Shown piece after piece: positions 9,573 through 12,548 of a stretch of DNA of 12,559 nucleotides. Origin of the DNA: a virus. The notes beneath the pieces are model-generated. The model was not told where the DNA came from. It was given only the letters and a program-made list of their open reading frames with translations, and made no database searches. A program made the translations under genes and the position numbers. The stretch lies in the UHGV virus genome UHGV-1669866, one strand, 5' to 3'. Position 1 is the first letter of the stretch. Each line of letters opens with the position of its first letter.

Positions 9573-9602
9573 ATTATGGCTAAATGGATAATTGCATGTC
9601 AA
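9573..9602 (-). promoter_or_regulatory. candidate sigma-70 late promoter (pR'-like) overlapping the Q stop codon
   Basis: Minus strand TTGACA (plus 9597-9602), 18-bp spacer, CATAAT (plus 9573-9578). Predicted start lies at about 9566, at the foot of the terminator hairpin. Confidence 0.45.
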
Positions 9603-10098
9603 GGTTTTTAACAGCAACATGCTTAACTTTCTCAACACGTTTACGCATTTTGAAAGCATTTTGCATTGGCTGGTATAAAACAAATAATGACGCTTTCAGG
9701 ATGTCGTCAATTTCGTTTCTACAGGTTGCCAGTGAAGGTTTTCTCCATCCCTCGCCACCACGTCCACACATCTTGCGTGGCTTTGCAGTCGCGTGATAGT
9801 AGGATGCAATTGCTCGCTTAGATGAACCATGAGCGTAGTAGCTGAGGAGGATGCCAAAGGCTTTCTTGTCAATGTACATGACGGAATCAACGACCTGAGA
9901 AATCAACATTCCATCATCATCATTACACATTGGCCTTGTCATAATTCTTCCCGGCTCTACGCTCTCCATGAACTTCGCTATTACGCTGCTCATGCGCTTT
10001 TCCAGACGACCTGAATAAACCCATGCGCCCCACAGTTCAAGCCAGCCATTCAGCCACTCGTGCTGCTCTTTGGTGAGGTTTAGTTCTCTTATGCTCAT
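9580..10098 (-). CDS. Q: late-gene antiterminator Q (phage 82 / Phage_antitermQ-type, 172 aa)
   Basis: Motifs LELWGAWV and RPMCNDDDGMLISQVVD resemble the 82-type Q family as recalled. Sits between ninH and the lysis cassette; ATGA overlap with the ninH stop; GAGGGGAA RBS. Confidence 0.75.
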   Translation of the reverse strand: MSIRELNLTKEQHEWLNGWLELWGAWVYSGRLEKRMSSVIAKFMESVEPGRIMTRPMCNDDDGMLISQVVDSVMYIDKKAFGILLSYYAHGSSKRAIASYYHATAKPRKMCGRGGEGWRKPSLATCRNEIDDILKASLFVLYQPMQNAFKMRKRVEKVKHVAVKNLDMQLSI

Positions 10099-10283
10099 CG
10101 TCTTCCCCTCTTGCCTTGTTTGACCATCAGGACGCCGTTAACTATTACGTGACGCTCACCTTTGCTGTCTCGGTTGTACTTGAGCACTGTTCCTCTTGCG
10201 CAGGAAAGCATCCTCGCCACTTCGGTCTGATTGCCTCGTGTCTGGATAAGAAGCTCTGGTATCGTTTGAATTGTGGCGTTCAT
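10095..10283 (-). CDS. ninH: NinH-like small DNA-binding protein (62 aa)
   Basis: IPELLIQTRGNQTEVARMLSCARGTVLKY resembles lambda NinH (Fis-like HTH) as recalled; position immediately upstream of Q matches lambda. Confidence 0.7.
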   Translation of the reverse strand: MNATIQTIPELLIQTRGNQTEVARMLSCARGTVLKYNRDSKGERHVIVNGVLMVKQGKRGRR

Positions 10284-10642
10284 GCGTTCTCCAGTTCGGT
10301 GATTTTTATTCCAAGCCGTCCGCCTGGGACTTTCACACCACGAATTACGCGAATGTCATCGAATTGCTCGTCGTCTTCCGCAAATCCGGCGTGGATAAGG
10401 GAGTCGAGTAAACCTTTCAGGATGTTGTCGAGGTCTCGGCGGCGGGAGTCTGGAACGTCTGCGATGACTTTGATGCGGAGTCGTGATTTGGTGAAAATGT
10501 CTAACTTAAGTTGGCGGATAATTTGCTGAACGTCTTTTCGGTATTTCTGGCCTTTATCGCTGATGTAGTATTGGCTTCCCCGTCTTCGCCAGTAGGTATT
10601 CACCGATGGCGGGTATGGAAGCACAAACTGATATTCGTTCAT
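10280..10642 (-). CDS. rusA: RusA Holliday-junction resolvase (120 aa)
   Basis: 120 aa with PYPPSVNTYWRRRG, RRRDLDNILKG and GGRLGIKITE motifs, matching E. coli RusA as recalled. Confidence 0.88.
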   Translation of the reverse strand: MNEYQFVLPYPPSVNTYWRRRGSQYYISDKGQKYRKDVQQIIRQLKLDIFTKSRLRIKVIADVPDSRRRDLDNILKGLLDSLIHAGFAEDDEQFDDIRVIRGVKVPGGRLGIKITELENA

Positions 10643-10929
10643 GACTTAATCTTCCCCTCCTTCAGCAGTATCGCCTGCGTCCTGATCACGCCTTCGAGGT
10701 GGTAAAGTCTGGCGTCTTTGTTGTCGAGATTATGGGTGCGTCGGTCGATTTCATCGTGACACGCGCTACAAGCCCATGCGCCGATCAGGTCGTCAGGCTT
10801 CATTCCCGTTCCGCAAATTCCAGCCATCCGGTAATGTGCCAGAACTGTAGTTTCAGGATTGCCATTGCATACGCCGTAAATACGTACCTGGCATTCTCTG
10901 CCGCGTGCTTCTTTGCGTAGGTTAGCCAT
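10639..10929 (-). CDS. ybcO: YbcO-like Cys-rich putative nuclease (DUF1364-type, 96 aa)
   Basis: RGRECQVRIYGVCNGNPETTVLAH...CSACHDEIDRRTH resembles DLP12 YbcO as recalled; directly upstream of rusA as in DLP12. Confidence 0.7.
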   Translation of the reverse strand: MANLRKEARGRECQVRIYGVCNGNPETTVLAHYRMAGICGTGMKPDDLIGAWACSACHDEIDRRTHNLDNKDARLYHLEGVIRTQAILLKEGKIKS

Positions 10930-11198
10930 TATGGTTCGCTCCAGTAATTCTCAATTGCAGCAGCCATTCTCTGCATCCACTCTGCCAGCTTTAACGCGGC
11001 TTCTCTTTCAGAACCACATTTAGGGAAATCCTTCATTTCCATGCTGGCCTTATATGTTCTGAATGCCAGGTCTCCGGTAATAACCAACTCCTGATCAAGC
11101 ACCGAGCGTTTATTCCGGTGTTGAACGTAATAGACAGATTCAGTCCGCATTTCTTCTCTGTCTTTTTTGAAGGAAATAAGCTCAGAGAAATCACTCAT
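10929..11198 (-). CDS. hypothetical protein (89 aa) in the nin operon
   Basis: ORF track 89 aa; its start overlaps the ninF-like stop (ATGAGTGA) and its stop overlaps the ybcO-like start (TAATG). No family recognised. Confidence 0.5.
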   Translation of the reverse strand: MSDFSELISFKKDREEMRTESVYYVQHRNKRSVLDQELVITGDLAFRTYKASMEMKDFPKCGSEREAALKLAEWMQRMAAAIENYWSEP

Positions 11199-11361
11199 CG
11201 TCTTCTTCCTCGTACATTGAGCTATTCGGATCGCTCATCAGATCTGCGCAGCAGTGCTCACACACGTGAACTTCCAGCACATGCAGCTTCTGACCGCAGT
11301 TAGCGCACGTTAAAGCTCGCTCGACACTTCCTTGTTCGTAACTTCGATTTTGGTCAATCAC
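11191..11361 (-). CDS. ninF: NinF-like small Cys-rich protein (56 aa, GTG start), absent from the ORF track
   Basis: Hand translation of the minus strand gives (V/M)[55 protein letters not shown], resembling lambda NinF as recalled. GTG at 11359-11361 preceded by GAGGAA; GTGA overlap with the ninE stop. Confidence 0.55.
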
Positions 11362-11540
11362 CTTGTTTTCCTCGCACGTTCTCTAAGCCACCGGATATCC
11401 CACAGGTGAGCCGTGTAGTTGAAGGTTTTTACGTCAGATTCTTTTGGGATTGGCTTGCGTTTATTTCTGGAGCGTTTCGTTGGAAGGTATTTGCAGTTTT
11501 CGCAGATGATGTCGGTGATGCTTCGTCGCTGTCGTCTCAT
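11358..11540 (-). CDS. ninE: NinE-like protein (about 60 aa from the MRRQRR start)
   Basis: [23 protein letters not shown]...[14 protein letters not shown] resembles lambda NinE as recalled. The internal ATG at 11540 follows the HNH stop directly; the ORF-track start at 11558 would add 6 residues overlapping the HNH gene. Confidence 0.72.
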
Positions 11541-12139
11541 GCCGCCCTGTCTCCCCATCTCGCTTTCATTTTTTCATTTGCAAATCGCCAGAATCTTCCT
11601 TTGTGATATGAGCTTTCGCCATTACAGCAACGACTAATTGACGAACTATCAAATCCTTCTCTGACAGCATCCATAGCTGCTTCATAATAAACCTCCTCCC
11701 CAGTTTTCATGTCAGTAGAAATAACAGCTTTACTGGCAGGATGATCACCACTAAATTTACCTAGCGATATAGGTATTCTTCCATTTTGTTTATATCCGTG
11801 CTTTGAGTTTTCAGAATGTGATACCCATTCAAGGTTTTCAGCCCTATTGTCATCTCTTTGCCCATTTTTGTGATTAACTACCAAGCCATCACAGAACCCT
11901 GTACAGAATGCTTTCGCAACTATCCTGTGGGCGCTGTATTTCTTACCGTATACCTTTATTTGAAGATATCCTGTCGACTTGCACTTGAATGGTTTTACGC
12001 TAGTGCCATTAATTATTTTCTTATATGGCCTCTGTCTGGTTGATGTTACTGTAACTTCCCTCGTAATAGACCTGAAATTTCCTTTATTGCTAACCTGATA
12101 AAATGGAATCCCTTCGATATCTACCCAAACCTCAATCAT
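11537..12139 (-). CDS. HNH homing endonuclease (NUMOD4 + HNH_3 type, 200 aa)
   Basis: N-terminal NUMOD4-like motif ([15 protein letters not shown]) and HNH_3-like core (HRIVAKAF...[25 protein letters not shown]). The gene lies in an AT-rich stretch that contrasts with flanking DNA. GGAGG before the ATG. Confidence 0.85.
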
Positions 12140-12548
12140 AATTCCTCCATTCGCTAAGATGAATTGAGTTCATGGCACAATATGCTTCTATGTAGTCCAT
12201 TATTTCGGATATTTTTTTTACAGATAGAGTCGCCGTACTCTCTCTGATGTTTATTAGCTCACCTTCTAACCCTGATATAATCTCAGGGTGCTGGTTGGTT
12301 GCAATCTGCCAACCAGAAACGAATAACCCCTTCCAAAACTCAATATTTCTTGCTTTTCCATGATATGTAGCCTTCTTACTTATTTCAGATAGCATCGCGT
12401 GAAGGCGTGCATTTTGCCGAATGCTGCGGTTGCGTTCCTGGATGGTCACTACGATTGGTTTGGTTGGGTCTGGAAGAATTTGCTGTATCGCGTGAATAGC
12501 GTTTTGCTGATGAATGGGGCTTCTTAGTTCAAACGTTAGTTTCCTCAT
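12132..12548 (-). CDS. ninB: NinB/Orf-family recombination mediator (138 aa), chimeric
   Basis: First about 42 residues (MRKLTFELRSPIHQQNAIHAIQQILPDPTKPIVVTIQERNRS) match lambda NinB as recalled; the remainder is divergent and AT-rich. AAGGTGA RBS before the ATG at 12548. Confidence 0.78.
   Translation of the reverse strand: MRKLTFELRSPIHQQNAIHAIQQILPDPTKPIVVTIQERNRSIRQNARLHAMLSEISKKATYHGKARNIEFWKGLFVSGWQIATNQHPEIISGLEGELINIRESTATLSVKKISEIMDYIEAYCAMNSIHLSEWRNYD

Follow-up and report, generated by a model that had tools for sequence, protein, structure and literature searches.

In lambda-type phages ninF is followed by the gene for NinG (Rap), the structure-specific endonuclease of lambda, a protein of about 200 residues. 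The DNA-binding protein Roi of HK620, HK022 and H-19B, with 240 residues, is encoded between ninF and a homologue of ybcO, where its gene is joined to its neighbours by ATGA.TGA and TAATG junctions. A third point of comparison is the protein family PHROG 1258/30735, which includes N15 gp44, phiKO2 Gp43, mEp235_051, HK225_059 and RCS47 p0097. This family is already catalogued (PHROG 1258), and there is no known function, Pfam entry or solved structure for any of its members.

Here we describe a gene for an 89-residue protein that lies, like roi, between ninF and ybcO, in a stretch of 12,559 nucleotides from the virus genome UHGV-1669866 (hereafter the window). With Roi, a much longer protein of unrelated sequence, the analogy is of position only. 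With NinG/Rap the likeness is one of neighbourhood only, the 89-residue protein having neither a match to the NinG family (PF05766) nor the Cys-rich nuclease motifs. The match to the PHROG family extends over the full length of the protein, and nothing material differs. The virus is a temperate coliphage of the P22/HK620 type, and the gene, which is genuine and dispensable, is an accessory one carried in a variable slot after ninF; its product may bind a host factor or one from a rival element.

Genomic setting

The closest matches of the window are P22-like coliphages of the HK620/Sf6 type; vB_EcoP-611R6 is 98% identical over 85% of the window length and HK620 is 97.8% identical over 73%. The minus strand carries the nin string, the gene for the 89-residue protein and Q (Table 1). 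The neighbours match the Pfam families NinB, NinE, NinF and NinH, whereas in the same scan the 89-residue protein matches none of NinB, NinE, NinF, NinH or NinX, in agreement with the original prediction, which could assign it to no nin family.

Table 1. Features around the gene for the 89-residue protein, in window coordinates
Feature	Coordinates	Strand	Basis or remark
NinB	12132-12548	-	Pfam
HNH/NUMOD4 endonuclease	11537-12139	-	Pfam
NinE	11358-11558	-	Pfam
Shine-Dalgarno-like GAGGA	11207-11211	-	8 nt upstream of the ATG of the 89-residue gene, within the 3' end of ninF
NinF, upstream neighbour	11191-11361	-	Pfam PF05810, E 9e-12
Upstream cassette junction ATGAGTGA	11191-11198	-	start of the 89-residue gene overlapping the ninF stop; HK620 homology stops
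89-residue gene, PHROG 1258 member	10929-11198	-	ORF; phrog_1258, E 4.7e-38
Downstream cassette junction TAATG	10927-10931	-	stop of the 89-residue gene overlapping the ybcO start; HK620 homology restarts
YbcO (DUF1364, putative nuclease), downstream neighbour	10639-10929	-	Pfam PF07102, E 1.8e-44
RusA Holliday-junction resolvase	10280-10642	-	Pfam PF05866, E 1.1e-16
NinH	10095-10283	-	Pfam
Q	9580-10098	-	Pfam

The 89-residue ORF overlaps both of its neighbours, as had been predicted, and also has a Shine-Dalgarno motif of its own. Its start codon (ATG, 11198-11196) lies just ahead of the ninF stop (TGA, 11193-11191), giving an overlap of 8 nt, the octamer ATGAGTGA, and the sequence that precedes the start reads TCAATGTACGAGGAAGAAGACG-ATG. 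At the other end its stop codon (TAA, 10931-10929) shares one nucleotide with the ybcO start (ATG, 10929-10927) in the sequence TAATG.

The endonuclease gene between ninB and ninE encodes an HNH homing-type enzyme of 200 residues with NUMOD4 and HNH_3 domains, which also matches the PADLOC model 'HEase' (E 1e-26). It has stop/start overlaps on both sides and a low GC content of 39.8%. Homology with HK620 stops here at 11540, and since ninB directly abuts ninE in HK620 we regard the endonuclease gene as an extra mobile cassette. The Pfam match to NinE starts at residue 7, six codons into the NinE ORF as listed, and M7 is probably the real start, since its ATG at 11540 would form an ATGA overlap with the endonuclease stop.

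Elsewhere in the window, a 145-residue ORF (7766-8203, minus strand) is taken as a putative Rz from its position downstream of holin- and endolysin-sized ORFs. Nested within it, out of frame, is a 71-residue ORF (7819-8034) with a lipobox-like VVSAC sequence, the layout that would be expected of Rz1 inside Rz. A search with Rfam finds no RNA family in the window.

Coding status and expression

Because the window contains 91 ORFs of at least 40 residues, the length of the 89-residue ORF is by itself no evidence that it is a gene. The evidence comes from its variation and its relatives. Among 80 near-identical copies in IMG/VR there are 39 distinct alleles, which carry 18 synonymous and 14 nonsynonymous variants and give an in-frame pN/pS of 0.19; none of the 39 has a premature stop. 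The other sense frames give pN/pS values of 1.2 and 2.7 and the antisense frames 0.71, 0.25 and 4.41; we put the value of 0.25 down to wobble positions that the frame concerned has in common with the 89-residue ORF. A profile built from 32 homologues, searched against 1.8 billion proteins in 50% identity clusters, finds 108 cluster representatives at E≤1e-3, of which 33 remain at E≤1e-10, and homologues extend to about 25-30% identity. The ORF is certainly a genuine conserved gene under purifying selection.

These results bear on the possibility that the ORF is a degraded or truncated nin gene (NinG/Rap, NinX, NinY or NinZ), or else an untranslated chance ORF, either of which could be suspected because it has ninF on one side and the resolvase genes on the other, about where ninG is found in lambda. 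The strong purifying selection in the annotated frame and the depth of the protein homology exclude a chance ORF. A truncated NinG is excluded as well: at E≤0.01 the protein does not match PF05766, at E≤1 none of 50 diverse family members matches NinG, NinX or any other Pfam family, and the gene coexists with an intact ninG in a substantial minority of copies, as described below. Explanations of this kind can safely be set aside.

One database entry joins an overlapping 53-residue alternative frame (window 11033-11194) to the C-terminal half of the 89-residue protein. The entry is more readily taken as a copy with a frameshift or an error than as a second gene.

From ninB to Q the minus strand is free of sites resembling promoters or terminators. 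A good promoter match on that strand first appears at 9602-9573; it is a strong sigma-70 sequence (TTGACA-18-CATAAT, 11 of 12 positions), overlaps the 3' end of Q and is situated where the late promoter pR' would be expected. From the overlaps, the GAGGA motif and the lack of an intervening promoter or terminator, we infer that the gene is co-transcribed with the nin genes in the delayed-early operon driven from pR and that its translation is coupled to that of ninF. Expression with the early-right operon, as first proposed, is thus the natural reading of the arrangement.

The exchange slot after ninF

In HK620 the same slot holds roi, of 723 bp, in place of the 270-bp ORF found here. Alignment of the two phages shows near-identity across ninF up to GACGATGA(G/A)TGA, after which similarity is lost; on the roi-hkbD side near-identity restarts at TAATGG(C/T)TAACC, the start of the ybcO homologue. 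Since homology breaks precisely at both overlapping junctions, whole genes have been exchanged exactly at overlapping stop/start junctions, and the two phages differ by a cassette swap between roi and the 89-residue gene. The GC content of the gene is 43.7%, compared with 49.7% for ninF and 52.6% for ybcO.

The slot was surveyed from both sides. At 77 usable loci with a close relative of NinF, the gene immediately after ninF encodes NinG in 39 cases, Roi in 33, an HNH endonuclease in two, a 78-residue ORF in two and the 89-residue protein in one. The position is a hotspot of gene exchange, and all these occupants, including two different HNH endonucleases, begin a few bases from the ninF stop. 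Conversely, 79 of 80 close copies of the 89-residue gene follow ninF, and the next gene is ybcO in 61 of the 80 and ninG in the remaining 19, an arrangement that is also present in RefSeq annotation. The earlier description of the gene as sitting where lambda has ninG is therefore misleading. Its occurrence between ninF and ninG shows that it is an optional insert and no substitute for NinG; the counterpart of NinG in the phage of the window is presumably, from what is generally known of lambdoid phages, the ybcO-rusA module.

Family identity

The match to phrog_1258 (Table 1) aligns residues 2-89 of the protein with positions 9-97 of the 97 in the profile. All 50 diverse relatives that we compared match PHROG 1258, and 45 of them also match PHROG 30735; both entries are annotated 'unknown function'. 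Phages mEp235 (mEp235_051), ECP1 and phiv205-1 encode a protein that is 100% identical, and Salmonella phages such as SPN9CC one that is 98% identical, in every case annotated 'hypothetical protein'. Identities of 35-44% are found with N15 gp44, phiKO2 Gp43, HK225_059 and proteins of P1-like plasmid prophages (RCS47, SJ46). The exact 89-residue sequence is present on at least 1000 contigs, always unnamed, and the gene occurs in 148 of 5426 complete E. coli genomes. The original description of the gene as unrecognised thus fails for its sequence, which was already deposited many times over and belongs to a catalogued family.

Conservation within the family is concentrated in a motif comprising H27, N29, (S/T)32, Q36, F58-P59, K70, W74 and R77, all of which are found in the window protein; column conservation at these positions is 0.72-0.96 over the 50 diverse members. 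Written out, the sequence pattern that the protein shares with PHROG 1258/30735 is H.NG.T.LEQ ... DFP ... KLA(D/E)W(L/M).R(L/M).

Profile and structure searches, which had been suggested with the original prediction, return only the PHROG 1258 match and no significant fold. Pfam, NCBIfam and PADLOC give no meaningful match for the protein or for the 50 relatives; a match to NCBIfam PRK11027 at E 0.016, seen in one of the 50, was treated as chance. A search of PDB sequences finds no match, and the single hit of a profile search against the PDB, 25 residues long at E 0.65, is likewise ascribed to chance. Domain fusions proved uninformative as a hint of function, the longer family proteins being apparent read-through or chimeric calls or carrying unannotated coiled-coil or N-terminal extensions. 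A full-text search of the literature found nothing on the family or on the 89-residue protein, a candidate paper on Vibrio phages having no bearing on it.

Distribution of the family

Without exception, the distant members of the family map to early or accessory regions. They lie in nin-like regions in prophages of Erwinia, Yokenella and other enterobacteria, and in a Serratia prophage the member adjoins a DUF551 gene, upstream of a methyltransferase gene and an integrase gene. In N15 and phiKO2 the gene lies in an operon downstream of a Q-like gene, in P1-like plasmids it is near hot, humD and phd-doc, and on contigs of uncultured siphophages it comes after NinG or after DnaB. In Mu-like prophages the family domain forms the C-terminal half of a 157-residue protein whose gene (5001-5474 and equivalents), in the semi-essential early region, has a stop that overlaps the gemA start. 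On a T4-like contig a 111-residue member (5001-5336) lies between dsbA (Trans_coact, of the late-transcription coactivator type) and gp59/gp32. Across 23 loci and eight contig contexts there is no constant partner gene, synteny being specific to each lineage. In one lambdoid prophage with a family member, a SIR2_2-domain gene is found two genes from the gene for a CI-like repressor (positions 1-151 and 478-1218 of the locus), with a 44-residue ORF between; the SIR2_2-domain gene could be a prophage-borne defence gene.

Among species-representative genomes the family is confined to Enterobacterales, with three exceptions. One is a 40% match on a contig labelled Limoniibacter endophyticus. In the other two, metagenome-assembled genomes labelled Bacillota and Collinsella, the copy of the E. 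coli phage gene is 100% identical, and these copies most likely come from mis-binned or contaminating contigs.

The occurrence of the gene in 148 of the complete E. coli genomes, together with the relatives in N15, phiKO2, P1-like elements, HK225, Serratia and Erwinia prophages, Mu-like and T4-like phages, marks it as both dispensable and mobile. Such a patchy distribution, and a GC content below that of the neighbouring genes, are also what might be expected of a 'moron' for lysogenic conversion or defence, a gene that the prophage would express to protect or alter the host. The mEp235 record does contain a promoter-like site, but at the 3' end of the gene and facing the next gene; the gene itself lacks a promoter and a terminator, and both neighbours overlap it within a delayed-early operon. 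None of the PADLOC defence models matches the protein at E≤0.1. The member on the T4-like contig also speaks against a role in lysogeny, as T4-like phages are not expected to lysogenise, and it makes it probable that the family is not restricted to temperate phages. We consider a moron very improbable.

Predicted structure

The AlphaFold2 model of the protein, built from a 32-sequence alignment (mean pLDDT 83, pTM 0.65), has strands at residues 4-13, 18-28, 33-43 and 48-53 and a helix at 64-87. The predicted fold is a four-stranded antiparallel sheet, a β-meander, that wraps a long C-terminal amphipathic helix. The BFVD model of a family member with 32% identity superposes on it with a TM score of 0.67, which gives independent support for the fold; the only BFVD match is to this same family. 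A Foldseek search of the PDB gives nothing significant, the best E value being 0.26, and there is no solved inhibitor structure among the fold matches. With a Kyte-Doolittle mean that nowhere exceeds 0.27 over 19 residues, the protein has no transmembrane segment, and it also lacks any recognisable catalytic, metal-binding or membrane motif.

When residues are classed as core or exposed from strand alternation in the AlphaFold2 secondary structure, and not from coordinates, most of the conserved positions would belong to the core: Y23, V25, H27, L34, Q36, L38, W/Y49, A51, F58, P59, L71, W74, L75, L78 and I82. A small conserved set appears to be exposed, consisting of the HxNGxT turn between β2 and β3 and of K70, D73 and R77 on one face of the helix.

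Cystatin and NTF2-like α+β rolls resemble the model in their sheet alone, which aligns over 50-55 residues with 2-8% identity and in no case significantly. In these rolls the helix comes first, whereas in the 89-residue protein it comes last, so that the topology is permuted. The β4-α nucleic-acid binders PC4, Whirly, PUR and SpoVG give background scores, the Whirly match having a Foldseek E value of 1.2 and a TM score of 0.36. The PHROG 1258 family is also mildly acidic and not basic, with a median pI of 5.6 and a net charge of -2.

The comparison with the β4-α binders bears on the main rival interpretation of the gene, namely that its product, possibly a dimer, binds nucleic acid in support of the nin recombination/replication module, either attaching to ssDNA or branched DNA or loading or modulating NinB, RusA or YbcO. 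The gene is embedded among those for NinB, YbcO and RusA, and distant relatives adjoin NinG, DnaB, gp59 and gp32. The acidic character of the family argues against such a role, as do the poor Foldseek scores and the presence of the gene across lineages with no constant recombination partner. A PC4- or SpoVG-like fold, in particular, is no more than a rival: hhalign gives a probability below 0.2% against provisional sequences of the PC4 C-terminal domain and SpoVG, and none of the 50 family members matches Pfam PC4 or SpoVG. We therefore judge a nucleic-acid-binding accessory to be unlikely.

Proposed role

The reading that we favour, with a probability of roughly 0.4, is that the 89-residue protein acts in the lytic cycle by binding a host factor, or one from a rival element, that is tied to phage DNA metabolism or to defence. 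The gene would be transcribed with the delayed-early pR operon and translated by coupling to ninF, and its product would be made in lytic growth or on induction and not in the lysogen. The product is predicted to be a small, soluble, mildly acidic, single-domain protein, and it would act stoichiometrically, by binding another macromolecule, with no catalysis. The target would most probably be a protein of the host or of a rival element that affects phage DNA metabolism or defence; a protein target is favoured because of the acidic charge, the lack of a nucleic-acid-binding signature, the patchy and mobile distribution and the absence of a co-inherited partner. The binding surface could be formed by the HxNGxT turn with K70, D73 and R77, or by the open face of the sheet. 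The mechanism is proposed by analogy with other small early phage proteins. Against this reading, the position of family genes among those for NinB, YbcO and RusA, beside gp59/gp32 and after NinG or DnaB is just as compatible with direct action on DNA.

A more far-reaching and doubtful extension is that PHROG 1258/30735 represents a so far unnoticed inhibitor for host takeover or anti-defence, with an undescribed permuted α+β roll, which travels as a free-standing cassette in at least five unrelated phage types (lambdoid/P22-like, N15-like, P1-like, Mu-like and T4-like).

As it stands, the finding adds one more conserved 'hypothetical protein' to the mosaic nin region, a typical accessory gene of low to moderate interest, and in itself it matters little. 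Its useful results are that it marks a precise slot for gene exchange after ninF, and that it shows a family with no fold or family match spreading far beyond the lambdoid phages, to N15-, P1-, Mu- and T4-like phages, which carry it in their early regions. What remains new is a possibly novel small fold and a spread across lineages that would be in keeping with a factor directed against the host or its defences. The cultured phages mEp235 and ECP1 have the identical protein, and the gene is a reasonable and cheap candidate for anti-defence and host-takeover screens.
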